This document shows positions 45,778 through 63,873 of a DNA stretch of 64,000 bases, piece by piece. Origin of the DNA: Thermodesulfobacteriota bacterium (GTDB lineage Bacteria > Desulfobacterota > DSM-4660 > Desulfatiglandales > HGW-15); assembly GCA_042573485.1 (NCBI GenBank), contig JBHPCX010000004.1, positions 18,210-82,209 on the forward strand, given 5' to 3'. Each line of letters opens with the position of its first letter. Position 1 is the first letter of the stretch. The position numbers were made by a program, and so were the translations under genes. Below the pieces are notes generated by a model. That model was not told the origin of the DNA. It saw only the letters and a list, made by a program, of their open reading frames with translations, and did no database searches.

Positions 45778-46929
45778 TTGAAAAAGATAAAAATATTCTT
45801 AATAACATTGCTCGCATCATTGGTTTTGCTTGGAGTCCCCGGGGCGAGTTCAGCCTATGATCCTTTGGATATTAGCGGTCTGAATGAATCTAATTTAACA
45901 CTTTCCATAGGTAGCAGGCCGGGTTACTCAGACTTTTCCTATGGCACCTCAATTGATTCCCTGTTACTGGAAAAGGAATACAATACCTACCTGCCCTGGA
46001 TGGATGAGACACAGTTTAAGGTGAGATTCGTTATTGATCCAAACCTGTGGTCACGTCCGGGACGTGAAATCAGCAGAGTAGACTCTCAAGTGTCGGGGCT
46101 GAGACACTCCCTTTTAGCGGACGCGAATTTTCTGAATTTAAATCCTGCATCTTTTGATGCGTCTTTTAATCCGGATGATTTCGGATATGGCCTTCAGATA
46201 AGCACTCTTTTTTTCGATTCCTCAGTAGACCTGTATTTCTGGACAGGAAGTGAAAACAGTCTTTTTACATCATTATCCGCTTCCAGAATAACTTCACCTT
46301 CTCAATTATGGGGAAGGACATCGGCATTATTTCACCTCGATAATTCCGAATATTATTTCAGAAATAAAAATGTAGCAGCCACGTGGTCGAAAGATTTGAG
46401 CTTTCTTGGCTTTATTCATCAGGGGACTGCTCCGACAATCAGGTTGGAAACATCCTACAGATCTGATGAAGTAAAGGCTGTGTACGCGGCTCCGGGCGTT
46501 ATCAATCGCTTAGGAGGATATGATGAATTGAGTTTCGGTATTGCATATGAAGGCAAAAATAATTTTGAATTGCTCAACTCTTCATATGGTATCAACTGGG
46601 GTTTCGGCTATAGTTACAGCAGGGCCCTTAATGTTCCTGAAATAATTGCTGACACAAGTCTTGAAAATTTTGATACAAGGCTCGGGACTCACAGTGGAAA
46701 TATTAATGCCAGTACGTCCTGGAAGAATATGAAATTAATGACGATGGTAATGTACCTTTATGATATTCAATCAAAGGGCGGTATAACCATGATGCAGGCT
46801 AATTTCAGTCCGGACTTGAGATGGACCTACGGAGTCAGGGCTAATTTTTACGATGGAGCTGAAAGCGCCTTATGGCCGTGGATTGAAGAGTCAGAACATA
46901 TATCCCTTTCAGTGACATATAAATGGTAA
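45778..46929 (+). CDS. Secreted protein of unknown function, possibly an outer-membrane beta-barrel
   Basis: Has a signal peptide MKKIKIFLITLLASLVLLGVPGASSA, a Ser/Tyr/Gly/Asn-rich alternating sequence and a C-terminal aromatic residue (..SVTYKW). Uses a TTG start. Confidence 0.55.
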   Translation: MKKIKIFLITLLASLVLLGVPGASSAYDPLDISGLNESNLTLSIGSRPGYSDFSYGTSIDSLLLEKEYNTYLPWMDETQFKVRFVIDPNLWSRPGREISRVDSQVSGLRHSLLADANFLNLNPASFDASFNPDDFGYGLQISTLFFDSSVDLYFWTGSENSLFTSLSASRITSPSQLWGRTSALFHLDNSEYYFRNKNVAATWSKDLSFLGFIHQGTAPTIRLETSYRSDEVKAVYAAPGVINRLGGYDELSFGIAYEGKNNFELLNSSYGINWGFGYSYSRALNVPEIIADTSLENFDTRLGTHSGNINASTSWKNMKLMTMVMYLYDIQSKGGITMMQANFSPDLRWTYGVRANFYDGAESALWPWIEESEHISLSVTYKW

Positions 46930-49270: not shown

Positions 49271-50056
49271 ATGGATAAAAAAGATCCAAAAAATAAATAT
49301 ATTGTTCCAGCAGTAGAACAGGCTATTCGTGTGTTGTTATGTCTTGCAGGATCTAAATCCTCCCATATGAGTCTTACGGAAATCTGTGAACAGGTTGGAA
49401 TACACAAAAGCAAGGCCTTTGGCATTCTTCATACTCTTCAGCGCTTTGGTCTGGTTCAGAGCCGTGGGCGGAAGAAGGGATATTCACTGGGGACCGGTTT
49501 AATCACTCTTTCAAGAAAAGTGCTTGATGGTATAAATGTGATTGCCTTTGCAGACCCGATGCTCAGAGACCTTTCCGATAAAGTAAAGGGCACTGCTGCT
49601 CTGGGTATAATCGATGGTGATACTGTGGTTGTAGTATCTCGATATGAAAGTATCAAGAATGTTGGTGTAACAATTCGGGTTGGCAATCATGTCCCCATTT
49701 CCTATGGAGCACACGGCAAGGCAATTGCGGCCTTTATGCCTGAAGGTGATCTGGATGCCCTTCTGCAAAAAGAAAAACTTCATTTTCATGGGAAACCTGA
49801 AAATTTTGACAAAGATCGTCTTATGATGGAACTTGAACAATGCAGAAAGACAGGTTACGCAACTGATATCGGAGAAATAACTCCCGGATTGAATGCTGCT
49901 TCAGCGCCTGTTATAGATATTAATGGAAAACCCATCGGATATCTTCTTGTTATTGGTCTATTCACGCCCGAAGCCACCAGAAAGCATGGTACATTAGTCG
50001 CAGAAGCCGGAAGAGACCTTTCAAGGCAGCTCGGGGCAAATCTGGACAATCTCTAA
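49271..50056 (+). CDS. IclR-family transcriptional regulator
   Basis: The N-terminal winged HTH is VEQAIRVLLCLAGSKSSHMSLTEICEQVGIHKSKAFGILHTL, followed by a C-terminal effector-binding domain. Lies divergent from AOR1. Confidence 0.88.
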   Translation: MDKKDPKNKYIVPAVEQAIRVLLCLAGSKSSHMSLTEICEQVGIHKSKAFGILHTLQRFGLVQSRGRKKGYSLGTGLITLSRKVLDGINVIAFADPMLRDLSDKVKGTAALGIIDGDTVVVVSRYESIKNVGVTIRVGNHVPISYGAHGKAIAAFMPEGDLDALLQKEKLHFHGKPENFDKDRLMMELEQCRKTGYATDIGEITPGLNAASAPVIDINGKPIGYLLVIGLFTPEATRKHGTLVAEAGRDLSRQLGANLDNL

Positions 50057-50151: not shown

Positions 50152-50484
50152 TTATTTGCTGAATATTGAAAGAAATGATTTCCTTATCCCCTGGATAGCC
50201 TTTTCATCCTTCAGAAGGTTTTCAAGCTCACCCGAATCAAGGTGGACCGCGCCGCAGTTTTCATTGGCACATATATCAATTTTTATGTCTCCCCTGTCTA
50301 CTTCAACCAGGCTTTTAGTCCCGCATCTAAAACAATGGTATGAATGATTAACCCGGTATTCCTGATCGGATTCTTTTTTGTTTCTATCTCTCAAATCACG
50401 GATAAGTTTTGCATCCTCTTCCTTGAAAAAAATCTCTTCATCACTCATCTCAGCTTGAATGCACACTTTTACTATTTCACTCAT
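50152..50484 (-). CDS. Zinc-ribbon protein (TFIIB-type zinc-finger-like)
   Basis: Four Cys in CFRCGTKSLVEVDRGDIKIDICANENCGAVHLDSGELENL. 110 aa. Confidence 0.5.
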   Translation of the reverse strand: MSEIVKVCIQAEMSDEEIFFKEEDAKLIRDLRDRNKKESDQEYRVNHSYHCFRCGTKSLVEVDRGDIKIDICANENCGAVHLDSGELENLLKDEKAIQGIRKSFLSIFSK

Positions 50485-50687: not shown

Positions 50688-52118
50688 ATGGAGAAATCAT
50701 CTAACATAATCTATTCACCTGAAGAAAAATGGGGCGCCATGCTGGCGATTACAACCGGTATGTTTATGAGCGCCCTTGATATGAGCATTATCAATATCTC
50801 ACTGCCAACCCTCATGGTTCAACTGAATACTAAATTTCTGGCAGTGCAATGGGTCATGATCTCATATAACCTTGTAATGACCTCGGTAATGATGGGTGCC
50901 GCAAGAATGGGTGATATGCATGATAAGAAAAAACTCAATAGCTGGGGGCTGCTGCTGTTTACCATTGGCTCCCTGCTATGCGGATTTTCCCCGAATGTCG
51001 GCTGGATGATCGCTTTCAGGGTATTGCAAGGCCTGGGAGCTGTTATTATTCACGCGCTGGGTATGGCGCTGGTTGCGGAATCCTTTCCTCCGGGAGAAAG
51101 AGGACGTGTAATGGGAATAATTGGGGCCGTATCCTCAGTCGCCTTTGCTCTCGGGCCCGCGATCGGTGGACTTATAATAGCCGCGGGCGGCTGGCGATGG
51201 ATATTCCTTTTTAAAGTGCCACTGGGGGTTTTAGCCCTCTGGGCCTGCGCCAAGTTTTTACCGAAGATATCGCCTCATCAAACAAATCAGAGGTTTGATA
51301 TTCTTGGTGCAGTTACCTTGTTTATTGCACTTGGCTGCTTCGCACTTGGAATGACTTTTGGCCAGGACCGGGGTTTCGGGGAAGTAATTGTGCAGTTAAT
51401 GCTGGCAATAGCATTCGCAGGTGTAATTGTTTTTTTATTCATTGAGAATAAAATTGAATTTCCGATGGTTGACCTGTCATTATTTAAGAATATACCCTTT
51501 TGCCTAAATCTTATGATGGGCTTTGTATCTTTTGTTACCATCAGCGGATTTTTCCTGATGCCCTTTTTCCTGCAGTTCGTGAGGCACTATACGCCAAAGG
51601 AAATAGGTTTTATAATGATGGTTACTCCTGTTTGTGTTGGAATTTTTTCCTATATATCAGGTAACCTGTCAGATCGTGTGGGAACACAAGGCCTGAGTAT
51701 AATTGGTATGTTTCTTCTTGCCGCGGGCTGCCTGTCTGTAAGTACTTTGACTCCAGAGACAGGAGTGGCGGGGTATTTACTGAGGCTTGTGCCTCTGGGT
51801 ATCGGGCTAGGGACTTTTTCTACACCTAATAACAGTGCAATTATGGGGGCTGCTCCTCCTGAAAGGTTCGGTGTTGCATCCGGGCTTCTTTCATTGACCA
51901 GGAGTCTTGCTCAGACTGCGGGAGTGCCTATAATGGGGACAATTTTCAGCGCTACATTAATATCCTATACAAAAATGGAAACTTTACCGGATATATCCGA
52001 AGTAACTCCCGATGCACTGGTAAGAGGGATTAACATGACATATCTTTTCGGGGGACTTTTTATAATCGCATTAACCATTTTCGCGATGTTCTTATTCAGG
52101 TTGAGAGGAAAACCTTAA
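50688..52118 (+). CDS. MFS transporter, DHA2 (EmrB/QacA-like, 14-TMS) drug/metabolite:H+ antiporter
   Basis: 476 aa with about 14 hydrophobic segments, motif A-like GDMHDKKK and motif C-like GPAIGGLIIAAGGWRWIF. Confidence 0.85.
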   Translation: MEKSSNIIYSPEEKWGAMLAITTGMFMSALDMSIINISLPTLMVQLNTKFLAVQWVMISYNLVMTSVMMGAARMGDMHDKKKLNSWGLLLFTIGSLLCGFSPNVGWMIAFRVLQGLGAVIIHALGMALVAESFPPGERGRVMGIIGAVSSVAFALGPAIGGLIIAAGGWRWIFLFKVPLGVLALWACAKFLPKISPHQTNQRFDILGAVTLFIALGCFALGMTFGQDRGFGEVIVQLMLAIAFAGVIVFLFIENKIEFPMVDLSLFKNIPFCLNLMMGFVSFVTISGFFLMPFFLQFVRHYTPKEIGFIMMVTPVCVGIFSYISGNLSDRVGTQGLSIIGMFLLAAGCLSVSTLTPETGVAGYLLRLVPLGIGLGTFSTPNNSAIMGAAPPERFGVASGLLSLTRSLAQTAGVPIMGTIFSATLISYTKMETLPDISEVTPDALVRGINMTYLFGGLFIIALTIFAMFLFRLRGKP

Positions 52119-52217: not shown

Positions 52218-53258
52218 ATGAAAAAAATGACAATTGGAAGTACCGGAATCGAGGCCGCAAGGCTTGCCATGGGCGGGATACCTTTACAGCGCGTGAGTGA
52301 AGAAGACGCGATAGAAGCAGTAAGGTACGCGGTTGAGAAGGGTATCGATTTTATTGATACTGCCAGAATGTACTCCACCAGTGAAAGCAGGATTGGTAAG
52401 GCTCTGAAAATGACAAATAAAAAAGTCACAGTATCGAGCAAGTCTATTTTACGAACCGCTGACGGTATCAGAAAAGAAATAGAAGAGAGCCTTAAAGAAC
52501 TTCAGCTGGATTATATTGATTTTTATCATTGTCACTCTGTTGCCTCTGATGAAGATTACAAGCGTGTTACAGCATCTGATGGAGCCCTTGAAGGACTTCG
52601 CAGGGCAAAGGAAGAAGGTATTATTGGACACATCGGTATATCAAGCTACAATATTGATGTTGCTGAAAAAGCTGTTGATGACAATATTTTTGAAACAATT
52701 ATGGTTTGCCTGAGTATAATTGAACCAATTGCATTAAAAACGGTTATTCCGAAGGCAATGGAAAAGAAGACAGGCATTTTTACAGTGAAACCCCTTTCGG
52801 GTGGAGTTATAGGCATTCCTGAGCTTGCACTCAGGTGGGTGTTTTCTTTTCCAAGCGTGATGGTTATAGCTGGAATGGAAGAAAAAGAATATATAGACAA
52901 AAACTGGGATGTTTTTCAAGGTGACTACAGTTTTACTGATGAAGAAAAACAACAGATTATTTCCCTGAATAAGGGATTCGAGGAAAAATTCTGCCACAGG
53001 TGTGGATATTGTGAACCCTGTACCGTTGAAATTCCCATTCACAAGATACTCAGCATTAAAAACATGGTGAAGGTAAAGGGGCAGGAGATGTTAACAAGCC
53101 CCGATTTCGAGAGTGCGCTTGAGAGGGCAAAAAATTGCATTCAATGCGGAGATTGTTTAATAAGGTGTCCTTTTAACCTCCCTATACCCTTTATGATGAA
53201 GGAATATGTGAAGTGGGCGGATTATGAAATCGGTAAAATGAAGGACCACACGTATTAA
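52218..53258 (+). CDS. Aldo/keto reductase with a C-terminal 4Fe-4S binding extension
   Basis: The AKR N-terminal block is GIDFIDTARMYSTSESRIGKAL...LQLDYIDFYHCH. The C-terminal cysteine motifs are CHRCGYCEPC and CIQCGDCLIRCP. Confidence 0.85.
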   Translation: MKKMTIGSTGIEAARLAMGGIPLQRVSEEDAIEAVRYAVEKGIDFIDTARMYSTSESRIGKALKMTNKKVTVSSKSILRTADGIRKEIEESLKELQLDYIDFYHCHSVASDEDYKRVTASDGALEGLRRAKEEGIIGHIGISSYNIDVAEKAVDDNIFETIMVCLSIIEPIALKTVIPKAMEKKTGIFTVKPLSGGVIGIPELALRWVFSFPSVMVIAGMEEKEYIDKNWDVFQGDYSFTDEEKQQIISLNKGFEEKFCHRCGYCEPCTVEIPIHKILSIKNMVKVKGQEMLTSPDFESALERAKNCIQCGDCLIRCPFNLPIPFMMKEYVKWADYEIGKMKDHTY

Positions 53259-53433: not shown

Positions 53434-53859
53434 TTAAAATTTTTCTCTGGGGATATCGGCTTCCTTCATGCTGTCAGCCATTGTCCAGAAGTATGCTTCA
53501 CCGGTGTAAAGATGAAATACCGCCAGGAGAGGATCATCAGGTTCTGTAATTCCCATACGGCTAAGGTTCAGCCTTTCAGCTATACATTTTTTCTTTACTT
53601 CTGTATCTTCCACAATCTTCATTTTGCCGTAAACTCTCATTACTTTGCTAAATTTTGGTGTGCAAAAATATACTTCAACTTTTTCATTTGCCTGGATCTG
53701 CTTATAGACAGCCTTTACTGACTGTGACTGAAACCAGAAACCTGTTTCATCAGCATACCACATTCCCATTGCCCTGACTCTTGGCTGATCGCCTTCCACA
53801 GTTGCCAGGTAACACATGTTATTTTCATTGGCGAAATCTGTATATTCTTTGAAACTCAT
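53434..53859 (-). CDS. Pyridoxamine 5'-phosphate oxidase-family (split-barrel flavin-binding) protein
   Basis: 141 aa. MCYLATVEGDQPRVRAMGMWY...KVEVYF....KVMRVYGK resembles the general PNPOx-like fold pattern. Confidence 0.65.
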   Translation of the reverse strand: MSFKEYTDFANENNMCYLATVEGDQPRVRAMGMWYADETGFWFQSQSVKAVYKQIQANEKVEVYFCTPKFSKVMRVYGKMKIVEDTEVKKKCIAERLNLSRMGITEPDDPLLAVFHLYTGEAYFWTMADSMKEADIPREKF

Positions 53860-53891: not shown

Positions 53892-53911
53892 CCTGTGTTT
53901 TAAATATATTT
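53892..53911 (+). promoter_or_regulatory. 20-bp motif cctgtgttttaaatatattt, copy 1 (an identical copy is at 61651-61670)
   Basis: The 20/20 match was read directly, and both copies are on the + strand. It lies about 20 bp upstream of a candidate promoter (TTGTCA ... TGaTATAGT, 53930-53956) for the TRAP-cupin operon. Confidence 0.6.
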
Positions 53912-54048: not shown

Positions 54049-55095
54049 ATGATCAGAAGAAAAGTCTTCTCCCATAAAGGTTTTATGCTTTCTACTTTGC
54101 TTTTCTGCCTTTTTGTCCTGAACACATCTTCAGTCCTGGCAAAAAGACCCAGAATCATCAGGCTGGTTGTCCCTGCTGCTGCCGGTGATCCACTGACATA
54201 TAAAGATGAAGAACTGGCAAGGAGATTTAATAATAGAGTGGGTGACCAGTACAAAATTCAGGTCTTTCCGGGAGAATCTCTTGCTCGTATTCCGGAATAT
54301 TTTGATGCGGTCAGAGTTGGAGCCATTGAAATGGCGGATATAGCATGGGGTATTTACGCCGGACATGATCCCAGGCTGTCTCTTATTGAAACACCATTTT
54401 TGTTTAATAATATCGAGGCAGGGACAGCTGCGGCAAAACGGCTACTCCCTCTTCATGATGAGATACTGCAGAAAAAATTTAACGCGAAAGCACTGGGGCT
54501 GATTCATTTCAGCGGAATAGAATTTTTATCCCTGAAACCGGTTAATAAACTTGAAGATCTGAAGGGCATGATGATTGGCGCGATCAGCCCAGCTATGGCA
54601 AAAATGATTCAGGAGCTTGGCGCGTCACCTGTAACCGTAATGTGGACGGATCTCTATACAAGCCTGCAAAAGGGTGTAATAGACGGGACGGCAAACGGCA
54701 CACACGGCAGTATTGAAAACGGTCTCCTGGACGTCTGTTCTGATGTCACCTATTTTTTTGGTGCCGCGGCCTGGAACGGTTATACAATTAACCTGGACCT
54801 CTGGAAAAGCATGCCTGAAAATGTCCGGAAAATTCTCCTTGAAGAAACAGAAAAGGCAGTCGACTGGATGCATAATAAACTGGCAGAGTATGAAATATCG
54901 GATATGCAGACATTTATAAAAAAAGGTAAAAATATCCATATTATTTCAAAAGAAGAACGGGAAAGGTGGGAAAAAAAGCTGATTCAATATCAGAAGAAAC
55001 AATTGTCAAGCATGGGGGAGTTCGGATTAAAGGTTAAAGAAATTGCGGATGATGTAAACAGCAAACATCCCTATAAGGTAAAGAGCATTAAATAA
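54049..55095 (+). CDS. dctP: TRAP transporter solute-binding protein DctP family
   Basis: Has a signal peptide and is followed directly by Q and M subunit genes. It is a paralog of 44363. Confidence 0.9.
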   Translation: MIRRKVFSHKGFMLSTLLFCLFVLNTSSVLAKRPRIIRLVVPAAAGDPLTYKDEELARRFNNRVGDQYKIQVFPGESLARIPEYFDAVRVGAIEMADIAWGIYAGHDPRLSLIETPFLFNNIEAGTAAAKRLLPLHDEILQKKFNAKALGLIHFSGIEFLSLKPVNKLEDLKGMMIGAISPAMAKMIQELGASPVTVMWTDLYTSLQKGVIDGTANGTHGSIENGLLDVCSDVTYFFGAAAWNGYTINLDLWKSMPENVRKILLEETEKAVDWMHNKLAEYEISDMQTFIKKGKNIHIISKEERERWEKKLIQYQKKQLSSMGEFGLKVKEIADDVNSKHPYKVKSIK

Positions 55096-55613
55096 TGTCA
55101 CACTCCTTTTTAAAAAAAGCAGACCTTATAATAGAACGCGTAAGTAATTTTTTTGCCCTTCTGAGCGGCATATTGATAGTACTTATGGCATTTACCGCTT
55201 CATATGGTGTTATAAGGCGATATTTCTTTAAAAGTCCCGAGCCCTATTCATATGAGTTGAGCACCATGTTCCTTTTGTGGACATTTGTTCTTGCCCTGGC
55301 CTATCTTGAAAAACTTGATGGGCACCTGAGGGTTGATTTTTTTGTGGTTCTGCTTCCTGAAAAAATCAGGAGATTTTTATTGAATGTGTTTGGCCCCTTG
55401 ATGGGCCTGGTTTTTTGTTCTGTTTTAACCTGGGAAGGCTGGAAGGTGGCAATGTATTCTCTTGAAATAGGCGAGAAAAGCATGTCCGTCTGGGCTGTTC
55501 CTCTTTTTCCCGTGAAGATAATTATTCCTATTGGGTATGGGTTGGTCAGTGTTGTTCTCGTATTGAAGATTATCAGGGGTTTTATTGAACTGGGAAATGA
55601 TCAATCATCCTGA
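55095..55613 (+). CDS. dctQ: TRAP transporter small permease DctQ family
   Basis: 172 aa with four TM helices. Its start abuts the dctP stop. Confidence 0.85.
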   Translation: MSHSFLKKADLIIERVSNFFALLSGILIVLMAFTASYGVIRRYFFKSPEPYSYELSTMFLLWTFVLALAYLEKLDGHLRVDFFVVLLPEKIRRFLLNVFGPLMGLVFCSVLTWEGWKVAMYSLEIGEKSMSVWAVPLFPVKIIIPIGYGLVSVVLVLKIIRGFIELGNDQSS

Positions 55614-55694: not shown

Positions 55695-56996
55695 GTGGAT
55701 TATAACACCGCGTCCATATTATGCGCCGGCTTAATGTTCTTTCTACTCCTGCTGGGTGTGCCTATAGCCTATTCACTGGGATTCAGCTCAATAGTAGTGG
55801 GATATTTTGCCTTTGGAAGCTTTGCTCTCCAGAAGGCCGGCTGGACCACATTTCAGCTGCTTTATAATCTTACATGGACGCCTCTCCCCCTCTTTACACT
55901 CATGTCCTACCTTATTGCCGAGACAAAGATGGGCGAACACCTTTTCCGAACAGCAAGAAACTGGATGTCACGTCTGCCGGGCGGACTGTTTGTAGCAGGT
56001 ATCCTCGGGGAGGCAGGAATGGCCGCCGCCCTTGGCGCGAGCGGTCCGACAATTATAGCTGTTGGAAATGTCGCAGTCCCTGAATTTAAGAGATATTCAT
56101 ATAATAAACCCCTTGGCCTGGGCGCTTTGACCTGCGGTGGAGTCCTTGGCCCTTTGATACCTCCCAGTGCTACGATGATCATTTTTGCAATCCTGGCCAA
56201 TGTTCCCCTTGGCCGCCTGTTTATCGCCGGGGTGATCCCCGGGATACTGCTGGCCGTGATGCTGTCTCTCGTTCCCATAATAATGTGCGCGAGGAATCCC
56301 GAACTCGGCAGGGCAGCGGGGAAAATAAGCTGGGGTGAAAGAATCTCTTCACTCAAACTTATCTGGCCCATTGTCCTTGTAATGTTCGGCATACTGGGGT
56401 CAATATATTTTGGTATAGCTACTCCTACTGAGGCGGGTGGCGTCGGGTGTTTTATCGTACTTGTTATAGCTGTGCTTTTTTTTAATTTAAGACTAAAAGG
56501 TCTTCACAGGGCAATGGTTAAAACCGCGGTACTCAATGCCACAATTATGATTATACTTGTGGGGTCATCTTTTTTTACATATGTTTTTGGAAGTTCATCA
56601 ATCGCACAGAAACTGTCTGTATTCATAGCATCAATGAATTTGCCTCCATTGGCTGTAGTTGTGGCAATAATGATTTTTCTGTTGTTCCTGGGGTGCTTTA
56701 TTGATGGAATAACCATAATGATGCTTACGGTACCTATTTTTATACCGATAATTACCGAGCTTGGCTTTGATCCATTGTGGTTTGGAATATTGTTTGTCGT
56801 AAATATGGAAATTGCCCTGATTACACCTCCAATGGGGATCAATTTTTTTCTTGTCAGGAATAGTTTTAATATTTCGAGTATTGACTTGATAAAAGGTATA
56901 TGGCCTTTTTTAATAGTCCTTGTACTGTTTCTTGCCTTAACGGTTGCATTTCCTCAACTGAGTCTCTGGCTGCCGGGATTGATGATTGGAAAGTAG
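55695..56996 (+). CDS. dctM: TRAP transporter large permease DctM family
   Basis: 433 aa and highly hydrophobic (about 12 TM). Blocks such as GGVLGPLIPPSATMIIFA and NMEIALITPPMGINFF are typical of DctM. Uses a GTG start. Confidence 0.9.
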   Translation: MDYNTASILCAGLMFFLLLLGVPIAYSLGFSSIVVGYFAFGSFALQKAGWTTFQLLYNLTWTPLPLFTLMSYLIAETKMGEHLFRTARNWMSRLPGGLFVAGILGEAGMAAALGASGPTIIAVGNVAVPEFKRYSYNKPLGLGALTCGGVLGPLIPPSATMIIFAILANVPLGRLFIAGVIPGILLAVMLSLVPIIMCARNPELGRAAGKISWGERISSLKLIWPIVLVMFGILGSIYFGIATPTEAGGVGCFIVLVIAVLFFNLRLKGLHRAMVKTAVLNATIMIILVGSSFFTYVFGSSSIAQKLSVFIASMNLPPLAVVVAIMIFLLFLGCFIDGITIMMLTVPIFIPIITELGFDPLWFGILFVVNMEIALITPPMGINFFLVRNSFNISSIDLIKGIWPFLIVLVLFLALTVAFPQLSLWLPGLMIGK

Positions 56997-57051: not shown

Positions 57052-57498
57052 ATGAGTAAAGTGAAATATGATAAATTTATTGTCCAGGGCATAACCCCTG
57101 AAATGAAGAAGATGTCCTATCCGGGAAAACCTCAGGACATCCCTCCTGAAAACGCGAAAAGAATAGCCTGGATGGATGATCATGTTGTAGAGGGATCATT
57201 TTATACAGAGGCTGTCTGGATATGGAAGGGTGATGAAGGGTCTGTGGAAAAGCCCCACATCCATGATTTCGATGAAGTAATCACCTTCTTTGGTTCTGAT
57301 TTTGAAAATCCCGATGAACTGAACGGGGAAATTGAATTCTGGTATGAAGATGAAAAGCATATTTTTACCAAAAGCGTTATGCTCTTTATCCCGAAGGGGC
57401 TGAAACACTGTCCTCTTATCATCAGGAGGGTGGACAGGCCCATTTTCCATTACACCGCGGGAACCGGAAGAAGCCATGTCCAGGATATAGCAGGTTGA
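57052..57498 (+). CDS. Uncharacterised cupin-like protein, single module (paralog A, HCP subtype)
   Basis: Cupin motif 1 is PHIHDFDEVITFFG and motif 2 is IPKGLKHCP. Shares the AVWIWKG strand and the RVDRPIFHY tail with paralogs B and E. Confidence 0.8.
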   Translation: MSKVKYDKFIVQGITPEMKKMSYPGKPQDIPPENAKRIAWMDDHVVEGSFYTEAVWIWKGDEGSVEKPHIHDFDEVITFFGSDFENPDELNGEIEFWYEDEKHIFTKSVMLFIPKGLKHCPLIIRRVDRPIFHYTAGTGRSHVQDIAG

Positions 57499-57501
57499 AA
57501 A

Positions 57502-57975
57502 ATGTCTGAATCAAAATTTGCTAAAAATATAGTAACCGAAGATTTAATGCCGCCTTTTCCCGAACCGGTTTTAAAAATGCTGGATAAACAGGAGAAGGAG
57601 GGTAAATATCTGGACAGGACATTAATGTTCGGCATTAATGATTCAATTGTTAAAGGGTCCTTTTTTTCAGGTTGTGAGTGGCTCTGGGAATTGAAGGACG
57701 GGAAACCCTTCCAGATTGAAGCAGCCCACTCCCATGATTTTGATGAGGTTATTGGTTTGATAGGGTCCCGGAGAGAAAACCCCAGGGAACTTGGAGGGGA
57801 AGTGGAATTCTGGATTGAGGATGAGAAACATATCCTAACAAAGAGCTGCCTGATGTATATCCCGAAAGGTACCATGCACTGTCCCCTTATTATCAACAGG
57901 ATTGACAGCCCGATTTTTCTATACGAGGCAGGGAATGACACTTTCTACAAAAGAAATATATCAGAACAGGAATAA
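57502..57975 (+). CDS. Uncharacterised cupin-like protein, single module (paralog B, HCP subtype)
   Basis: Blocks are AHSHDFDEVIGLIG, NPRELGGEVEFWIEDEKHILTKS, IPKGTMHCP and RIDSPIFLY. Starts 4 nt after paralog A. Confidence 0.8.
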   Translation: MSESKFAKNIVTEDLMPPFPEPVLKMLDKQEKEGKYLDRTLMFGINDSIVKGSFFSGCEWLWELKDGKPFQIEAAHSHDFDEVIGLIGSRRENPRELGGEVEFWIEDEKHILTKSCLMYIPKGTMHCPLIINRIDSPIFLYEAGNDTFYKRNISEQE

Positions 57976-57984
57976 AGGGGAGTC

Positions 57985-58890
57985 ATGAATATGATTGAAC
58001 AGGATGTTTCAAGTTATTTGATTGACAGGCCAATTAAAAGGGACCTGAAGGGCAGGAACCATGGACAGCTTTTAACATATGCCAGTGACTCCCAGATTCC
58101 CGGTCTTCAGTACTATACTCAGATCCGCTGGATAACAGGAATGCCTGAATCGATTCCTGGAGACAGGGCGTTAGTATGTGACAGTGATAAGGTGGTTTTA
58201 TTCTGGGGCAATGACTATAAAGATCCGGAGAACCTTGGCGCGGACATTGAATTTCAGCTTGATGGAACCGTATTGCAATTTAACAGCTCAAGCTCGATCT
58301 TTGTACCAGCTGGTGTAAGTCATGGTCCTGCGATCTGGAGAAACCATGAAACTCCTCATGTGGAGATGACAATACTCATTAACAGGGGTAACCTTAAGGG
58401 TGTAACCTCAACTGATAAAGTATCTGAGTTGAGACATGTATCTGACCCCGGGAAATATATTGTCCGAAAACCTGCATACGAGGTTGTGGCTCCTACCCCC
58501 ACGAAAAACAGGATGCATCCTTCAATGACCTTTATGAGTAATAATCTTGTTCCCGATTCGAATACCTATCTCGAATTCAGCTGGATATGGGGTATGCCTG
58601 ATCCTGATCCGCATATTATGGAACATGTACATGAAGACAGTAACGAGCTTGTGTTTCATATAGGGGCCAATCCTGATGACCCTGAAGAACTGGGAGCGGA
58701 AATAGAAATATTTCTTGACGGCAAACCTCTTATGATCAAAAAGACTTCCGCCCTTTATGCACCTAAAAAGATAAGTCATGGACCTCTTAAATGGAAGAAC
58801 TACACAAAACCCCATATTGAGATGGCCATTATTTTTGATGCCGGTGTTCTCGCCCAGTCAGATCCTGGCGGGCACCAGAAGAATCTTTAA
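57985..58890 (+). CDS. Uncharacterised two-module (bicupin-like) protein (paralog C, HGP subtype)
   Basis: The N-module has a degenerate site (LVCDSDKVVLFWG ... VPAGVSHGP). The C-module is intact (EHVHEDSNELVFHIG ... APKKISHGP). Both have the ...W-I-x-G-M-P strand. Confidence 0.8.
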   Translation: MNMIEQDVSSYLIDRPIKRDLKGRNHGQLLTYASDSQIPGLQYYTQIRWITGMPESIPGDRALVCDSDKVVLFWGNDYKDPENLGADIEFQLDGTVLQFNSSSSIFVPAGVSHGPAIWRNHETPHVEMTILINRGNLKGVTSTDKVSELRHVSDPGKYIVRKPAYEVVAPTPTKNRMHPSMTFMSNNLVPDSNTYLEFSWIWGMPDPDPHIMEHVHEDSNELVFHIGANPDDPEELGAEIEIFLDGKPLMIKKTSALYAPKKISHGPLKWKNYTKPHIEMAIIFDAGVLAQSDPGGHQKNL

Positions 58891-58917
58891 TGCAGCCCGT
58901 TCCTTAAGGAAAGAAAA

Positions 58918-59826
58918 ATGAATCAAACAAACTATGAAAAGTATATGGTAAGGAGCCCTCTCAGGGAAATTGGTAAAGATGTCAAAGGACGAAGTGCTCC
59001 CGCAATGACTTACATGAGCAATGACCTTGTTGAAGGTTGTAACAAGTATATCGATATAAGCTGGATATATGGAATACCGGAGCCCAATCCCCATGTCTTT
59101 GAACACGCTCATGAATATGACAAGATAGTCTTCTTTGTTGGAGGAGATCCATATAATTTAGAGAGCCTCGGCGGTGAGATAGAATATTACCTCGGCGGAC
59201 AGCCGATAAGCCTGAACACAACATCGGCTCTGTACATTAAGAAGGGTGTTAGGCATGGTCCGGTGACATGGAAGGACTTTCCAAGGCCCCATCTGGAGAT
59301 TTCTATTATTCTTGGACCTGAAAAGAATAAAGCAGGCTGGTCAGCTGAAGAAGTCACCGGTCAAAAACAGCCTGAAAAATCGGATGATGTGGATTATGAA
59401 AAGTATGTTGTAAGAAAACCTGCCATTCTTCAGGGAACCGATGTAACAGAGGCGATGAAAAGTCCCGCCCGGATATATATGAGCAGTGATCTTGTTCCGG
59501 AAAGCAGTGTGTATGTGGATTTCGGCTGGATACCAGGTATGCCCGGACAAAATCCGCCCATACCTGATCACTCCCATGATTATGAAGAGGTAGTATTGCT
59601 TGTTGGAAATGATCCTGAGAATCCTGAAATACTCGGGGCTGAAATCGAGTTCTGCATAGATGATCAGCCCCTGACATTTGATACAACCACGGCAATATAT
59701 GCCCCAAGGTCTCTCAAGCACGGTCCCCTTACATGGAAGAAATTCGAAAGGCCCCATTTGCTGATGCCAATAGTAATCGGAACAGGATCTCTGGCTGAAG
59801 CAGCGCCGGCAGGGTATAAGGAATAA
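58918..59826 (+). CDS. Uncharacterised two-module (bicupin-like) protein (paralog D, HGP subtype)
   Basis: The N-module reads EHAHEYDKIVFFVG ... IKKGVRHGP (Glu position replaced by Lys). The C-module reads DHSHDYEEVVLLVG ... APRSLKHGP. Each half opens with YEKY[MV]VR[SK]P. Confidence 0.8.
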   Translation: MNQTNYEKYMVRSPLREIGKDVKGRSAPAMTYMSNDLVEGCNKYIDISWIYGIPEPNPHVFEHAHEYDKIVFFVGGDPYNLESLGGEIEYYLGGQPISLNTTSALYIKKGVRHGPVTWKDFPRPHLEISIILGPEKNKAGWSAEEVTGQKQPEKSDDVDYEKYVVRKPAILQGTDVTEAMKSPARIYMSSDLVPESSVYVDFGWIPGMPGQNPPIPDHSHDYEEVVLLVGNDPENPEILGAEIEFCIDDQPLTFDTTTAIYAPRSLKHGPLTWKKFERPHLLMPIVIGTGSLAEAAPAGYKE

Positions 59827-59952
59827 TAAAAGCGGTTTATCCGTCGACACCAAAAGGATAAGGCGGGTTAAAAAATTTAAAAAATGGCTAGTTGTAGAAT
59901 ATAATACGGTGTCAGAACTTTTTCATAATCATATCTGATCCCCTTTTTCCCA

Positions 59953-60030
59953 GTGTTTTGATTTTTTAAAGATTAACAGCTCTACCCGGTATCAAGAAAT
60001 TAAATCCATAATCTTTTAAAATCAAAACAC
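59953..60030. repeat. Imperfect 21-22-bp inverted repeat gtgttttgattttttaaagatt / aatcttttaaaatcaaaacac, 35 bp apart, in the spacer before the fifth cupin gene
   Basis: Read directly. The outer 13 bp are perfect, followed by a 1-nt length difference in the T/A run. The GTGTTTT core also begins the 20-bp motif at 53892 and 61651. Confidence 0.7.
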
Positions 60031-60126
60031 GCGGTTTATTCAGGAGGCTATCTGCAGATATAATTATGAAAAAATCTGACAACTCCTTAAAAAAAATAAA
60101 CGCTTTTATTAATTTGGAGAAAATAA

Positions 60127-60567
60127 ATGGGAAAAATGGACAGCAGGTATTTTGCGACAAAGCCCAGGAATAACATACCTTCTACTCCATGGGACCCTGT
60201 TTTTAAACCTGATGAAGCAACACGTATGATGTATCTTGATAAGACCATCCTTGAAGGGGCTTTTTATCTGGAATGCGCCTGGTTCTGGCCGGGAGAATGG
60301 CCAAAGGGTAAAAACTGGAGTGAACATGGTGTAAAGTCTCATGTACATGATTATGACGAAGTAATAGCATTTTATGGCACTAATCCCGAAGATCCTGAAG
60401 ATCTTTGCGGTGAAGTAGAATTGTGGATAGGCGGAGAACAGAATATAGCGGATAAAAGTTTTGTGGCCTTTATCCCAGCAGGAATTGAACACTGTCCGCT
60501 AAACATCCTGAGAGTGGACAGGCCGATTTTTCATTTTTCAACCGGTCCCGGGAAAAGTTATTTTTAA
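60127..60567 (+). CDS. Uncharacterised cupin-like protein, single module (paralog E, HCP subtype)
   Basis: Blocks are SHVHDYDEVIAFYG, NPEDPEDLCGEVELWIGGEQ, IPAGIEHCP and RVDRPIFHF. Confidence 0.8.
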   Translation: MGKMDSRYFATKPRNNIPSTPWDPVFKPDEATRMMYLDKTILEGAFYLECAWFWPGEWPKGKNWSEHGVKSHVHDYDEVIAFYGTNPEDPEDLCGEVELWIGGEQNIADKSFVAFIPAGIEHCPLNILRVDRPIFHFSTGPGKSYF

Positions 60568-60578
60568 AGGAGGAAGGT

Positions 60579-60890
60579 ATGATACGTGCATCTGTGTATT
60601 ACCCGTCAGGAGAAGGAAAAATTGATATGGATTATTATCTTAATACCCATATCCCTCTTGTTGAAAAATTAATGGAACCCTACGGTCTTGTGAAAGTTGA
60701 AGTTGATAAAGGTATAGGGGGCGGAAAACCAGGGGAAGCGGCACCCTTTGTTACTATAGCTCAAATGGTGTTCAATTCCATGGAAGAATTTCAAAAGGGG
60801 TCTGAAGTCCATGAAGGCGAGTTTGCCGCTGACGTGAAAAATTTTACTGATATAAAGCCGTTCTTTCAGGTCAGTGAAATAGTAAAATAG
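60579..60890 (+). CDS. EthD-family (dimeric alpha/beta-barrel, TIGR02118-like) protein
   Basis: 103 aa. MIRASVYYPSGEGKIDMDYYLNTHIPLV...APFVTIAQMVFNSMEEFQKG...DVKNFTD fits the EthD pattern. An AGGAGG RBS sits upstream. Confidence 0.7.
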   Translation: MIRASVYYPSGEGKIDMDYYLNTHIPLVEKLMEPYGLVKVEVDKGIGGGKPGEAAPFVTIAQMVFNSMEEFQKGSEVHEGEFAADVKNFTDIKPFFQVSEIVK

Positions 60891-61059: not shown

Positions 61060-61497
61060 ATGTTACTGGATGATATAGATCGAGCATTAATAAAAGAACT
61101 TGAAAAGGATGCAAGAGTTAGCAGTGATGTTTTGGCCAGGAACCTGAACATCAGCTCGACAACAATAAGGCGGAGAACCAGGAGGCTTATTCAGGAAGGC
61201 ATTATTAAGATTGTAGCTATCCCTGATCTGAAAAAACTGGGCTTTTCGGTAATCGTTGGGATACGGATGGAACTGGATCAGAAAAAGATCGACAATGTTA
61301 CCAAAGAATTGATAAAACACCCGAATGTCAGGGGTGTGTGGACAATAACAGGCAGGTATAATCTTTCTTCAATGGCGGTTTTTCGATCCACGGAGGAATT
61401 TTCAGAATTTATGCGTAATGTTGTCGGGGATCTGGATGGTTTGAAATCGGTTGAAACACACATTTATCTCGAACTTATCGGTTCTCAGGCCGAATAA
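61060..61497 (+). CDS. AsnC/Lrp-family transcriptional regulator
   Basis: The HTH is LDDIDRALIKELEKDARVSSDVLARNLNISSTTIRRRTRRLIQEGII, followed by a C-terminal RAM/ACT-like domain. Confidence 0.88.
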   Translation: MLLDDIDRALIKELEKDARVSSDVLARNLNISSTTIRRRTRRLIQEGIIKIVAIPDLKKLGFSVIVGIRMELDQKKIDNVTKELIKHPNVRGVWTITGRYNLSSMAVFRSTEEFSEFMRNVVGDLDGLKSVETHIYLELIGSQAE

Positions 61498-61650: not shown

Positions 61651-61670
61651 CCTGTGTTTTAAATATATTT
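61651..61670 (+). promoter_or_regulatory. 20-bp motif cctgtgttttaaatatattt, copy 2
   Basis: Identical to 53892-53911. It lies 42 nt upstream of the AOR2 start and overlaps the expected -35 region of a cataat -10 element at 61688-61693. Confidence 0.6.
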
Positions 61671-61711: not shown

Positions 61712-63574
61712 ATGTATAAAGGAGGATATACCGGGAAAATACTGAGAATCAATCTGTCTGATCAGTCGGTTAAAACTGAGAGTCTGCCGGAAGACCTGGC
61801 CAGGATGTTTATCGGTGGAGCGGGATTCGGTATTAAATTATTGTTTGATGAGGTCGGGAAGGGCACTGACCCCCTGGGGCCTGAAAACAAATTGATCTTC
61901 GCGTCCGGCCCATTCTCGGGCACATCGGTACCCTGCGCGAGCCGTATGGCGATCACAGGTAAATCCCCCCTTACTGGCGGGGTTGGCGTATCTCTTACAG
62001 GCGGATATTTCCCTGTTGAGTTGAAATTCGCGGGCTATGATATCATGATTATCGAAGGAAGATCTGAGGAGCCTGTGTACATATCCATCAAGGACGGGAA
62101 TGTAAAATTCAGGAGTGCCAAAAAAGTATGGGGGATGAAGACAACCGATACCCAGCAGATAATAAAAAATGAATTGAATGATCAGAACACAAGAATAGCA
62201 TGTATAGGCCCTGCCGGTGAAAATCTAAGTAAACTGGCCTGCATTATAAATGAACTGAGGGCGGCAGGCAGAAAAGGGCTGGGAGCTGTAATGGGTTCTA
62301 AGAACCTGAAGGCAATAGCTGTAAGGGGTACCGGAGAAGTAGATATCGCGTCAAAGGAAAAACTGAAAACAGCAAGAGATTTTATGGCAAAGCAAATGAA
62401 TGACAGTGAAGTCCTTTATCCACATTTTGCAAAACTCGGAACTCCCATGGTTGTCGATGCCTTGAGCGGTCTTGGAATATTCCCCGGAAAAAACTTTGAA
62501 GAAACGGGGGTATTCGTTCCCGTAGAAGAAATTGGTGTTGAGACCCAGGTTACCAGGAACATGGGCAGTGAACACTGTTACGGATGCCCGGTCGGGTGCA
62601 GCCAGCTGAAGCTTGCGAAAACAGGAGAATATTCAGGTATTATGGCTGAAGGCCCTGAATTTGAAACAATGTATTCCTTTGGCGGGACAACAGGTGTGGA
62701 TAATATTGATGCCATTATCGCGGCCGACAGGCTGTCTGACGAACTGGGGCTGGATACGATTTCAGCGGGAGCAACAATAGCCTTTGCCATGGAGCTCTTT
62801 GAAAAAGGGATCATAACCCTGGAAGATACGGGCGGAATAGATCTGAAATTCGGAAACCACAGGGTAATGGTGGATATGCTCAGGCTGATGGCCTACAGGG
62901 AAGGTTTCGGTGATGTTTTGTCAGATGGCACCAGGATCGCGGCTGAAAGAATAGGCAAAGGATCAGAAAAATATGCCATGCATGTAAAGGGTCTTGAACT
63001 GCCCGGTTATGATGTCAGGGGGGCAAAGGCCCATGGACTTAATTATGCCACATCATACACTGGTGCTGATCATAACAGGGGTTACGCGTTCCAGGAAATA
63101 TTCGGCATACCTGTACCTGAAGCAGTTGACAGGTTTGCCGCGGAAGGAAAGGGGAAACTCACTAAATGGAACCAGGATGTAAGGTCTGCCACATGTGATA
63201 CCCCTACCATGTGTGCCTTTTTACTCGATATGGCTGTACCGGGAGTTGCCACCCAGAATACGGCGAGTTTGATGGAGGCTGTTACGGGCCTTGAATTTAC
63301 ACCGGAAGAGGTTGAAAGAGTAGGAGAGAGGATAAACAACCTCGCGAGGTTATTTAACGCCCGGGAAGGCATGACAAGGGATGATGATAACCTCCCGGAA
63401 AGAATAATGACCGAACCTATAAAGGATGGTGTTTCAAAGGGAAATTTTATCAGCAAGGATGATCTGAACCTTATGCTGGATGAATATTATACTGCCAGGG
63501 GATGGGACCTCAAGACAGGTACGCCTACCAAGGAGAAACTCGAGGAACTGGGATTGGGGGATGCGGTCGAATAG
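61712..63574 (+). CDS. Aldehyde:ferredoxin oxidoreductase (tungstopterin AOR family), copy 2
   Basis: 620 aa with GKILRINLSDQSVKTESLPEDLARMFIGGAGFGIKLLFD, the cluster motif CYGCPVGC and GLDTISAGATIAFAMELFE. Confidence 0.9.
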   Translation: MYKGGYTGKILRINLSDQSVKTESLPEDLARMFIGGAGFGIKLLFDEVGKGTDPLGPENKLIFASGPFSGTSVPCASRMAITGKSPLTGGVGVSLTGGYFPVELKFAGYDIMIIEGRSEEPVYISIKDGNVKFRSAKKVWGMKTTDTQQIIKNELNDQNTRIACIGPAGENLSKLACIINELRAAGRKGLGAVMGSKNLKAIAVRGTGEVDIASKEKLKTARDFMAKQMNDSEVLYPHFAKLGTPMVVDALSGLGIFPGKNFEETGVFVPVEEIGVETQVTRNMGSEHCYGCPVGCSQLKLAKTGEYSGIMAEGPEFETMYSFGGTTGVDNIDAIIAADRLSDELGLDTISAGATIAFAMELFEKGIITLEDTGGIDLKFGNHRVMVDMLRLMAYREGFGDVLSDGTRIAAERIGKGSEKYAMHVKGLELPGYDVRGAKAHGLNYATSYTGADHNRGYAFQEIFGIPVPEAVDRFAAEGKGKLTKWNQDVRSATCDTPTMCAFLLDMAVPGVATQNTASLMEAVTGLEFTPEEVERVGERINNLARLFNAREGMTRDDDNLPERIMTEPIKDGVSKGNFISKDDLNLMLDEYYTARGWDLKTGTPTKEKLEELGLGDAVE

Positions 63575-63582
63575 TGCACATT

Positions 63583-63873
63583 ATGATTAGAGTAAATTTA
63601 TACACCATACTGGGAATAAAAGATATCATCGGAGAGAGAGAAGTTGGAATTGAAGTCCCTGATAATTCCAGTCTTTCAGGTTTAATAACGGAGATTGTTA
63701 ATCGATGGGGAAATGGTATATCGGAAGTGCTTTTCGAGCCGGAAAGCAAAAAGATAAAGGCACATTTACGCCTTATGGTAAACGGCCAGGACATCAGCTT
63801 TCTGGACGGACTGGATACAAGGCTCAAGGATGGTGATGAGGTGATGATATTTCCGCCGGTGTCGGGGGGGTAA
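63583..63873 (+). CDS. MoaD/ThiS-family ubiquitin-like sulfur-carrier protein (C-terminal Gly-Gly)
   Basis: 96 aa ending in ...DGDEVMIFPPVSGG*. ATG 63583 lies 9 nt after the AOR2 stop. The track start at 63502 overlaps AOR2 and is unlikely. Confidence 0.8.
   Translation: MIRVNLYTILGIKDIIGEREVGIEVPDNSSLSGLITEIVNRWGNGISEVLFEPESKKIKAHLRLMVNGQDISFLDGLDTRLKDGDEVMIFPPVSGG

Follow-up and report, generated by a model that had tools for sequence, protein, structure and literature searches.

An array of predicted metallo-cupins of an uncharacterised family beside a TRAP transporter in a Thermodesulfobacteriota genome

In a 64-kb stretch of DNA from a Thermodesulfobacteriota bacterium (contig JBHPCX010000004.1, positions 18,210 to 82,209; the whole stretch of 64,000 nucleotides is called the window here), five tandem genes, named A to E, follow the genes of a TRAP transporter and are built from copies of one cupin-like module. 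The locus raises the question of what such an array does, and whether its products act together. The answer proposed here is that they would be cooperating, O2-independent metallo-cupin enzymes of the isomerase or lyase type, acting in the catabolism of an imported organic acid, a reading for and against which we find the evidence about evenly balanced. The original prediction for this DNA had reported the array from the sequence; its five open reading frames are all present in the window at the coordinates it gave, and its distance of 55 bp from dctM, which ends at 56996, to gene A is correct. Within the array the intergenic gaps are 3 bp (A-B), 9 bp (B-C), 27 bp (C-D) and 300 bp (D-E), and a further 11 bp separates E from an EthD-like gene. 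The parts of the array are as follows, the tetrad being the four aligned positions of the putative metal ligands.

57052-57498, + strand: gene A, single-module cupin of 148 aa, HCP subtype, tetrad H69/H71/E75/H119 intact
57502-57975, + strand: gene B, single-module cupin of 157 aa, HCP subtype, tetrad HHEH
57985-58890, + strand: gene C, double-module cupin of 301 aa, HGP subtype
57985-58434, + strand: N-terminal barrel of gene C (C_N), residues ~1-150, tetrad LCKH (degenerate)
58435-58890, + strand: C-terminal barrel of gene C (C_C), residues ~151-301, tetrad HHEH, with HxH-x4-E spacing
58918-59826, + strand: gene D, double-module cupin of 302 aa, HGP subtype
58918-59367, + strand: N-terminal barrel of gene D (D_N), tetrad HHKH (Lys in place of Glu)
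59368-59826, + strand: C-terminal barrel of gene D (D_C), tetrad H218/H220/E224/H268 intact
59827-60126, + strand: D-E spacer of 300 bp, with a hairpin and a promoter-like site
60127-60567, + strand: gene E, single-module cupin of 146 aa, HCP subtype, tetrad HHEH

That these genes carry seven copies of one module, as had been claimed, is borne out by BLASTP. When C and D are split into halves to give seven modules, all 21 of the 21 pairs match, with E values of 8.7e-9 to 7.6e-45 and identities of 21-52 %. Since every pair is significant, the likeness is true homology and not a chance pattern. In the window, a hidden Markov model (HMM) built on the seven modules picks out these five genes only, the next best match having E 0.03. 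The motif strings that had been quoted for the modules are all found in the translations, and the proposed division into two subtypes, HCP for the single-module genes and HGP for the double-module genes, is supported; close to the putative metal site, the residue that follows the motif-2 His is Cys in the former and Gly in the latter, and the invariant residues of the two subtypes also differ. At about 140 aa the module is longer than a generic Cupin_2 domain, with an N-terminal arm, a W-x-W strand and invariant residues of its own.

The assignment of the module to the cupins agrees with structure prediction. AlphaFold2 models were made of D and A, with family alignments as input. D is modelled as a bicupin, with a predicted local distance difference test score (pLDDT) of 91.2 and a predicted TM-score (pTM) of 0.91, and A as a monocupin with an N-terminal arm (pLDDT 86.2). 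Foldseek searches of the PDB with the two models give a probability of 1.00 to hundreds of cupin structures. The proteins are thereby modelled as members, at the level of fold, of the cupin superfamily (double-stranded beta-helix or jelly-roll barrel). The His/His/Glu/His ligands supplied by cupin motif 1, G(X)5HXH(X)3-4E(X)6G, and cupin motif 2, G(X)5PXG(X)2H, are all present in A, B, E, C_C and D_C, and the set is incomplete in C_N and D_N.

The original prediction could not place the module in any named cupin enzyme family, and searches of Pfam, NCBIfam and PDB sequences gave no confident match to a characterised one. Bit scores against Cupin_2 (PF07883) are 15.5 for A, 19.2 for B, 12.8 for C, 23.2 for D and 16.5 for E, where the gathering threshold is 27.2, and the alignments are limited to the motif-2 region (profile positions ~25-58); PF07883 is listed for some homologues in the precomputed Pfam annotation. 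The five proteins had no match in NCBIfam, and among PDB sequences no cupin was matched by D alone (phmmer) or by a 50-sequence family profile (hmmsearch). A Pfam scan of 97 aligned family members found weak Cupin_2 matches in 46 of the 50 bicupins and in all 47 of the small (single-module) proteins, and a few to Cupin_3. KduI, DMSP_lyase, Cupin_1, EctC and ARD were considered as identities and rejected, as none of these profiles matched any of the 97. The KduI profile (PF04962) found nothing at E<=0.1 in the 50 bicupins, nor did Cupin_1 (PF00190; oxalate decarboxylase/germin) match these or the window proteins.

How large, then, is the family, and where is it found? In an exhaustive HMM search, in which a single-module profile was run against 1.84 billion cluster representatives (50 % identity level), at E<=1e-3 it comprises 1393 proteins, a number that falls to 841 at E<=1e-10 and to 172 at E<=1e-30. 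Judged by these sequence matches, the family is discrete and of modest size, and does not merge into generic cupin space. Word-indexed searches gave 217 relatives of D and 204 of A, nearly all unnamed; the database entry identical to D is a 'hypothetical protein' of a Thermodesulfobacteriota metagenome-assembled genome (MAG). A scan of species-representative genomes confirmed 183 loci. Of the best 79 of the 183, the great majority come from Dehalococcoidales/Chloroflexota MAGs, in which one MAG often has several loci, the remainder being from Desulfatiglandales or 'delta proteobacterium' MAGs and a few Bacillota; no cultured isolate is among the hosts listed. The paralogues also occur together in many other genomes of three phyla, and their co-occurrence is not confined to this genome.

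Conservation of the putative metal ligands bears on which barrels might be active. The HMM-aligned tetrads of the window are HHEH in A, B, E, C_C and D_C, LCKH in C_N and HHKH in D_N, which confirms the earlier observation that ligands are lost from the N-terminal halves of C and D and retained in the C-terminal halves. Across 47 sequences of the small (HCP) subfamily H69, H71, E75 and H119 are invariant, together with E93, E95, E101, D128 and W56, and C120 is nearly so. In a sample of 50 bicupin homologues, H220, E224 and H268 of the C-barrel are invariant, the H218 position is His in 82 % and Met in 18 %, and the N-barrel ligands are present in 74-96 %; the acidic pairs E87/E89 and E242/E244 are invariant. 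These invariant acidic residues (E93, E95, E101 and D128 in the small proteins and the two pairs in the bicupins) are candidate general bases.

The pairing of one degenerate with one intact barrel, proposed for both duplicated proteins, is found in C and D; it does not extend to the family as a whole, in which 77 of 94 N-barrels, those of the bicupins in the fetched loci, keep the full tetrad. Where the N-barrel is degenerate (17 bicupins), the C-barrel reads HHEH in every case. Degenerate N-barrels are concentrated in loci with several paralogues: partner cupins accompany 15 of the 17, versus 35 of the 77 others (Fisher p = 0.0013, with no correction for phylogeny). Among D orthologues the N-barrel tetrads read HHKH, HHKH, HYKH, HLRH and CHRY, and this decay of the D N-site, which differs between genomes, indicates relaxed constraint. 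Those of the C orthologues read LCKH, TCKH, VSRH, LSKH and ISKH. Between orthologues of C and D the N-barrels are 57-80 % conserved versus 81-90 % for the C-barrels, the figures for gene C being 57-71 % and 83-87 %. The N-terminal barrel of C (LCKH) is probably not metal-binding. The tetrad pattern, the genome-specific decay of the N-site and the lower conservation of the N-barrels together support the idea of a catalytic and a structural barrel in each of C and D.

It is worth adding that some proteins of ~290-330 aa (P0241-P0256) give two matches to the small-type (HCP) profile, which means that duplication or fusion of the small subtype has produced bicupins as well, independently of the HGP bicupins C and D.

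Is the arrangement of the genes kept elsewhere? Genes in other loci, which carry the numbers of our survey (L001 and so on), were typed by their best counterpart in the window, c_c being a stand-alone protein of ~150 aa that resembles the C-barrel of C. L001 and L010, both Desulfatiglandales relatives, have the order 'a-[C]-[D]'; L012, L013 and L087 have 'c_c-[D]-e', and ~10 further loci have '[D]-small'. L089 has '[D]-[D]-c_c-c_c-e', which is again seven modules in five genes, with the same three types in another order. In the window 'a-[C]-[D]' and '[D]-e' are joined, with B in addition; its cassette is the fullest version seen. The c_c proteins, which stand before D-type bicupins in L012, L013 and L087 and 3' of two bicupins in L089, are 57-62 % identical to the C-barrel of C, and gene C looks like a c_c-type protein to which a degenerate N-barrel has been added. 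Gene E is 57-67 % identical to the small gene that ends the cupin cluster downstream in L012, L013, L087 and L089, and is of the conserved downstream partner type of D-type bicupins. A has orthologues of 85-88 % in L001 and L010. B has no orthologue in the syntenic Desulfatiglandales loci, its nearest relatives (56-59 %) being in the Dehalococcoidales loci L012 and L027. The unannotated neighbours of a lone small cupin in L004 and a 112-aa gene in L002 are not divergent cupins.

Such an arrangement invites the explanation that A to E are the subunits of one obligate hetero-oligomeric cupin metalloenzyme, in which monocupins dock on bicupins to give a multi-barrel catalytic particle, for example one of D and E with C and A/B as additional subunits; to our knowledge such a quaternary structure would be unusual among cupin enzymes. 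The spacing of only 3-27 bp between A, B, C and D would suit it, as would the typed order of C_C-type, D-type and E-type genes, which is kept across phyla, and L089, which independently has seven modules in two bicupins and three singles. The enrichment of degenerate barrels in multi-paralogue loci is what would be expected of non-catalytic subunits. Architecture was counted in 80 non-redundant cupin loci, 79 of them with a bicupin. In 13 loci a small gene lies directly downstream of a bicupin on the same strand, in nine directly upstream, and eight loci have tandem bicupins. A single-module gene accompanies the bicupin in 29 of the 79, but the other 50 have no small cupin within 10 kb, which is hard to reconcile with an obligate complex. 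The same is true of two relatives, L008 and L009, in which A is truncated or lost while C and D are intact, and of B and E, which have no counterpart in the closest syntenic relatives. Moreover, monocupins usually homodimerise and bicupins are self-contained. The conserved adjacency of bicupin and monocupin favours a functional unit; that this unit is an obligate hetero-oligomer is possible, though we think it doubtful, and the proteins may instead be separate enzymes that act one after another.

A second explanation is that the paralogues are parallel isoenzymes, which carry out the same type of reaction on different but related substrates. The strong expansion of the family, with several loci in one Dehalococcoidales MAG, would be understandable on this basis, as would the very diverse genomic contexts, the frequency of lone bicupins, and the presence in the window of a second DctP (54 % identical to the first) and a second aldehyde:ferredoxin oxidoreductase (AOR). 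It would not account for the difference between HCP and HGP proteins at conserved positions near the metal site, which suggests different chemistry, or for the conserved typed gene order, which is unexpected of interchangeable enzymes, and degenerate barrels cannot be isoenzymes. We regard this explanation as distinctly unlikely, and return to the reading of cooperating enzymes, for which the neighbouring genes need to be considered. These are as follows.

52218-53258, + strand: aldo/keto reductase (AKR) fused to a 4Fe-4S dicluster domain (Pfam)
53434-53859, - strand: PNPOx-like split-barrel flavoprotein, divergent from dctP (PF01243, E 5e-15)
54049-55095, + strand: dctP, encoding DctP1 (Pfam, NCBIfam)
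55095-55613, + strand: dctQ (DctQ and DctM 73-93 % identical to Pfam-annotated orthologues)
55695-56996, + strand: dctM (same evidence as dctQ)
60579-60890, + strand: EthD-like dimeric alpha/beta-barrel protein of 103 aa (PF07110, E 5e-9; TIGR02118, E 2e-20; PDB 3bf4, E 2e-13)
61060-61497, + strand: AsnC/Lrp-family regulator, between the EthD-like gene and AOR1 (Pfam, NCBIfam)
61712-63574, + strand: AOR1, tungsten-type aldehyde:ferredoxin oxidoreductase (AFOR_N, AFOR_C)
63592-63873, + strand: MoaD/ThiS-like protein (ThiS, PF02597)

The EthD-like gene that had been reported 3' of the array is confirmed by both PF07110 and TIGR02118, and the DctP, AsnC/Lrp and AOR assignments in the window by both Pfam and NCBIfam. 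The nearest solved relative of AOR1 is the P. furiosus AOR (1aor, E 1e-140), and AOR1 is not BamB-like. Compared with solved TRAP binding proteins, DctP1 gave a best match of E 2e-24, with an uninformative name and hence no clue to the ligand.

The order of PNPOx, DctPQM, small cupin, bicupin, bicupin, EthD and AsnC, with or without AOR, is largely kept in L001, L008, L009 and L010, at 64-93 % amino-acid identity. EthD follows the bicupins in all four, and the AsnC regulator is present in all four (84-86 % identity); the PNPOx-like gene holds the same position in L001, L008 and L010 (83-89 %). L001 is without AOR. In L008 the A orthologue is only a fragment (~8909-9049), and in L009 it is missing with most of the TRAP genes (~7167-7793); C, D, EthD, AsnC and AOR are intact in both. 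These two are long-read Desulfatiglandales-type MAGs, and the losses reflect either true decay of the genes or an artefact of assembly or frameshift. The AKR-4Fe-4S fusion (52218-53258) is a possible pathway partner: it has a 76 % orthologue in L009, and an AKR also stands beside a cupin triad in L087.

Of the linkage to TRAP, EthD and AOR that had been proposed, what stands is that it is kept in relatives; as a rule for the family it does not stand, as TRAP genes are found in only ~10 of the 86 loci surveyed. They lie beside family members in L001, L008, L010, L002/L025, L029, L013, L050, L081 and L087. An AOR adjoins family members in 12 of the 86 loci, which come from MAGs of Desulfobacterota, Bacillota and Chloroflexota, and L087 is a further case. 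Linkage to TRAP and AOR is thus real and crosses phyla, yet is a minority feature.

The wider surroundings are rich in redox enzymes. In Bacillota loci, small and double cupins occur with four flavoenzymes of old-yellow-enzyme type (OYE), two short-chain dehydrogenases/reductases (SDRs), DctPQM, an iron-containing alcohol dehydrogenase (Fe-ADH), AOR and ThiS. L006 has AOR, ThiS, two small cupins, a polyferredoxin, a bicupin and another small cupin in that order on one strand, and L087 has AOR, AKR, SDR, the cupin triad, OYE, an FAD dehydrogenase, TRAP and Fe-ADH. When only same-strand, closely spaced neighbours are counted (82 loci), the partners are SDRs in 11 loci, OYE-type reductases in seven, URO-D-like, IMPDH-like and nitroreductase genes in five each, a molybdenum-bis-pyranopterin guanine dinucleotide (Mo-bisPGD) enzyme set in four, AOR in four and TRAP in 3-4. 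A bbs-like block (thiolase/DUF35/crotonase/type III CoA-transferase) lies beside cupins in 5-6 loci. In the Dehalococcoidales loci L012, L019, L022, L024, L028 and L080 a bicupin is in an apparent operon with a block that resembles benzylsuccinate beta-oxidation (thiolase, DUF35 Zn-ribbon/OB protein, enoyl-CoA hydratase, type III CoA-transferase and SDR), the identities here having been read by eye. The SDR neighbours also brought to mind dihydrophloroglucinol cyclohydrolase and the phloroglucinol pathway, which were dropped since the paper that describes them mentions no cupin (PMC10470551).

What chemistry might be expected? The best Foldseek matches to the model of D are BacB and AerE (E 4e-13 to 4e-12, TMq 0.55-0.56, TMt 0.71-0.77, 13-16 % identity), which share its two-barrel architecture. 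BacB, of bacilysin biosynthesis, and AerE, of aeruginosin biosynthesis, are O2-independent, metal-assisted double-bond isomerases that act on a 2-oxo-acid alongside SDR reductases. They differ from the present proteins in several respects: at 13-16 % identity there is no sequence-level match even with the family profile; they have ~210-235 aa, where the bicupins here have 300; the window is without bac or aer biosynthetic neighbours, the array being flanked instead by TRAP, EthD, AsnC, AOR, AKR and PNPOx genes; and the hosts and contexts here are anaerobic and catabolic. Quercetinases and OxdC score nearly as well as BacB and AerE against D, the identity to OxdC being 8-10 %.

For A the leading Foldseek matches are KdgF, TM1459 and MarH (E ~1e-5, TM 0.43-0.57, 10-20 % identity). 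KdgF comes first (E 9e-6), but at 17-20 % identity and TM ~0.45 it is level with TM1459 and other generic cupins. In the unsaturated-uronate route, the monocupin KdgF, the bicupin KduI and the SDR KduD act on an imported acid. SDRs are also the commonest operon partner of the present family, and KdgF/KduI/KduD is the best 'works-like' analogue for a multi-step route with mono- and bicupins; BacB and AerE are a further 'works-like' analogue. The analogy has its limits: the Pfam KduI model is matched by neither subfamily, and KduI structures lie outside the top 50 Foldseek matches for D; no polysaccharide-lyase, kdgK or kdgA was seen among the annotated recurrent neighbours, although no search was aimed at them; and OYE, AOR and CoA-transferase partners are foreign to uronate catabolism. 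Cupin_2 proteins such as TM1459 and the MarH-type epimerases have the same fold and the same HxH...E...H tetrad, but the window proteins fall below the gathering threshold of that model and their family is discrete.

The cupin lyases of dimethylsulfoniopropionate (DMSP), DddK/L/Q/W/Y/U, are a further known group of cupin metalloenzymes with an O2-independent lyase reaction on a carboxylate, and their habitat overlaps with that of the present family, which is also found in marine-sediment metagenomes. In DddK a catalytic Tyr stands two residues after the ligand Glu, a position occupied by I, I, I, V and V in A, B, E, C_C and D_C, respectively, and DMSP uptake is normally not through TRAP transporters. 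No DMSP_lyase profile match was found in the 97 members, and for this reason and for the lack of the Tyr at Glu+2 a DMSP lyase identity was rejected. Six of the nine known Ddd enzymes are cupins (PMC13360808).

Could the proteins instead be O2-dependent dioxygenases or oxidases, of the quercetinase, gentisate-dioxygenase or oxalate-oxidase type, which cleave aromatic rings under micro-oxic conditions or scavenge O2? A site of three His and one Glu is typical of several cupin dioxygenases, and the quercetinase YxaG and salicylate and gentisate dioxygenases are among the Foldseek matches of D. Dehalococcoidales, Desulfatiglandales and the Bacillota host lineages are, however, generally regarded as strictly anaerobic, and the genes are apparently co-transcribed with, or lie beside, genes for tungsten-dependent AOR (W-AOR), Fe-S enoate reductases and ferredoxin-domain proteins. 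W-AOR and Fe-S enoate reductases are O2-sensitive, and because of these hosts and these neighbours O2-dependent chemistry is unlikely. There is, moreover, no sequence-level relation to any dioxygenase family, and the best structural neighbours are O2-independent isomerases. We consider an O2-dependent function highly improbable.

Only slightly less improbable, in our view, is that the cupins are non-catalytic proteins which bind small molecules or metals and serve the redox enzymes nearby as sensors, metallochaperones or stores. Many cupins are indeed binding proteins, UniRef lists one relative as 'ChrR-like cupin domain-containing protein', and some clusters lie in housekeeping neighbourhoods where no pathway is obvious. 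Yet the proteins are bare barrels with no DNA-binding, anti-sigma or other Pfam domain, their genes are found repeatedly inside catabolic operons, and acidic and His residues outside the tetrad are strictly conserved, as is more usual in catalytic proteins.

On the basis of these comparisons, the reading of cooperating O2-independent enzymes can be set out as follows. A to E would encode members of a discrete clade within the cupin superfamily, uncharacterised so far and restricted to strictly anaerobic hosts. Every barrel that is intact (A, B, E, C_C and D_C) is predicted to bind one divalent metal through the His-x-His-x3/4-Glu...His tetrad, while C_N and D_N would have lost the metal site and act as structural scaffolds. 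The core set would consist of a D-type bicupin, an HCP-type monocupin (E and/or A, B) and a C-type partner, which would cooperate. The substrate is presumed to be an organic acid imported by the adjacent TRAP system, and its carboxylate or alpha-oxo/hydroxy group could coordinate the metal. The chemistry would be proton transfer assisted by the metal. A conserved Glu might act as base to give a metal-stabilised enolate or enediolate, and the substrate could then be isomerised or tautomerised, have its ring opened, or undergo a step of the lyase or decarboxylase type. A carbonyl or aldehyde product could be handed on to AOR1 and the AKR-ferredoxin fusion here, and in other genomes to SDRs, OYE-type ene-reductases and beta-oxidation enzymes.

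Several points weigh against this reading. Among the 86 loci, TRAP and AOR reach frequencies of only ~12-14 % each, and as A is truncated in L008, and A and most of TRAP are lost in L009, the TRAP link is dispensable. Neighbourhoods are heterogeneous, and ribosomal or other housekeeping genes adjoin some cupin clusters, where catabolic partners are lacking. The enrichment of degenerate N-barrels near partner cupins is weakened by the fact that a single orthologue group accounts for 8 of the 17 cases. MHEH, with Met for the first His, is found in 44 of 94 C-barrels, mostly in lone Dehalococcoidales bicupins, which points to a subgroup in which the metal or the set of ligands differs. The reaction class rests, by analogy, on weak structural neighbours (TM 0.45-0.57, 10-20 % identity), and the family has no characterised member, nor was a description of it found in full-text searches of the literature.

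Examples of such housekeeping surroundings are seen in two Chloroflexota-type loci, L088 (8371-10386) and L089 (7973-12183), where the cupin cluster adjoins the L11-L1-L10-L12 ribosomal protein operon. Both clusters are preceded by a conserved lipoprotein-like protein of ~170 aa with no Pfam match, and have no adjacent catabolic genes.

A more far-reaching proposal joins several of these elements. The D-type bicupin, the C-type partner and the HCP monocupins might form a hetero-oligomer, a new kind of O2-independent cupin metalloenzyme system, for an undescribed anaerobic step that feeds W-AOR and ene-reductases. In such a step an alicyclic or aromatic-derived acid could, for example, be isomerised or have its ring opened to give an aldehyde, and the system might be a hallmark catabolic module of subsurface Dehalococcoidia and Desulfatiglandales. 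Taken as a whole we consider this unlikely. What is now delimited is a discrete cupin family with no model or characterised member and with a clear predicted catalytic-site signature, whose ordered arrays of mono- and bicupins are an unusual habit within a well-known superfamily. Dehalococcoidia and Desulfatiglans-type bacteria dominate many anoxic sediments, and their carbon metabolism is mostly inferred from 'hypothetical' genes. Should the proteins prove to be O2-independent isomerases or lyases, they would supply a step so far lacking in the pathways by which some abundant class of organic acids is broken down anaerobically, and give annotation pipelines a new family to name. The array is a solid lead to an unknown enzyme system, and the window, which holds the fullest cassette together with DctP1 and a second binding protein, DctP2, is a good experimental entry point.

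The original prediction treated the genes as one transcription unit; this is uncertain, because the 300-bp D-E spacer contains a strong hairpin and a promoter-like site. The RNA fold of the spacer has z = -4.3 relative to shuffled sequences, with none of 200 shuffles as good, and its strength is due to a nested imperfect hairpin of ~170 nt, the arms of which are inverted repeats at ~59910-59937/60055-60081 and 59953-59975/60009-60030. The promoter-like site is at 59876-59905, promoter matches overall being not above chance. Scans for promoters and terminators gave counts no higher than expected from shuffling, and do not fix the operon boundaries. The spacer was considered as a gene remnant and this was rejected, as blastx and blastn found no similarity, nor does the element resemble anything in the fetched loci. 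It could be an element of the miniature inverted-repeat transposable (MITE) or repetitive extragenic palindromic (REP) kind, an attenuator or an operator. A 17-nt segment of a hairpin arm recurs at 45423-45439 (- strand), ~30 bp downstream of the gene for DctP2. An Rfam scan of 53-64 kb gave a single sub-threshold snoRNA match, which is spurious.

A further repeat lies outside the array. The exact 20-mer CCTGTGTTTTAAATATATTT occurs twice on the + strand, at 53892-53911, 138 bp upstream of dctP, and at 61651-61670, 42 bp upstream of AOR1. There are no further matches at <=3 mismatches, and the chance expectation is 0.01. It is not conserved in the syntenic loci and was on that ground rejected as a conserved operator; it may be a genome-specific piece of operator or promoter shared by the two operons that flank the AsnC regulator.

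Upstream of the cassette, the orphan TRAP binding protein DctP2 (44363-45394, + strand) is 54 % identical to DctP1. It is followed 3' by a gene for a protein of 383 aa (45778-46929, + strand), which has no Pfam match even at E<=0.1; by eye, this protein has a signal-peptide-like N-terminus and an aromatic C-terminal residue (...TYKW), and it may be an outer-membrane beta-barrel or porin. Next come a second AOR (47051-48919, - strand), 37 % identical to AOR1, an IclR-family regulator (49271-50056, + strand) and an MFS transporter (50688-52118, + strand), and the 631-bp gap between the last two contains a gene for a 110-aa Zn-ribbon protein (50152-50484, - strand; PF13453, E 4e-8). Together with the cupin cassette, the second AOR and the IclR, Zn-ribbon and MFS genes make up an island of ~20 kb rich in genes of acid and aldehyde metabolism.

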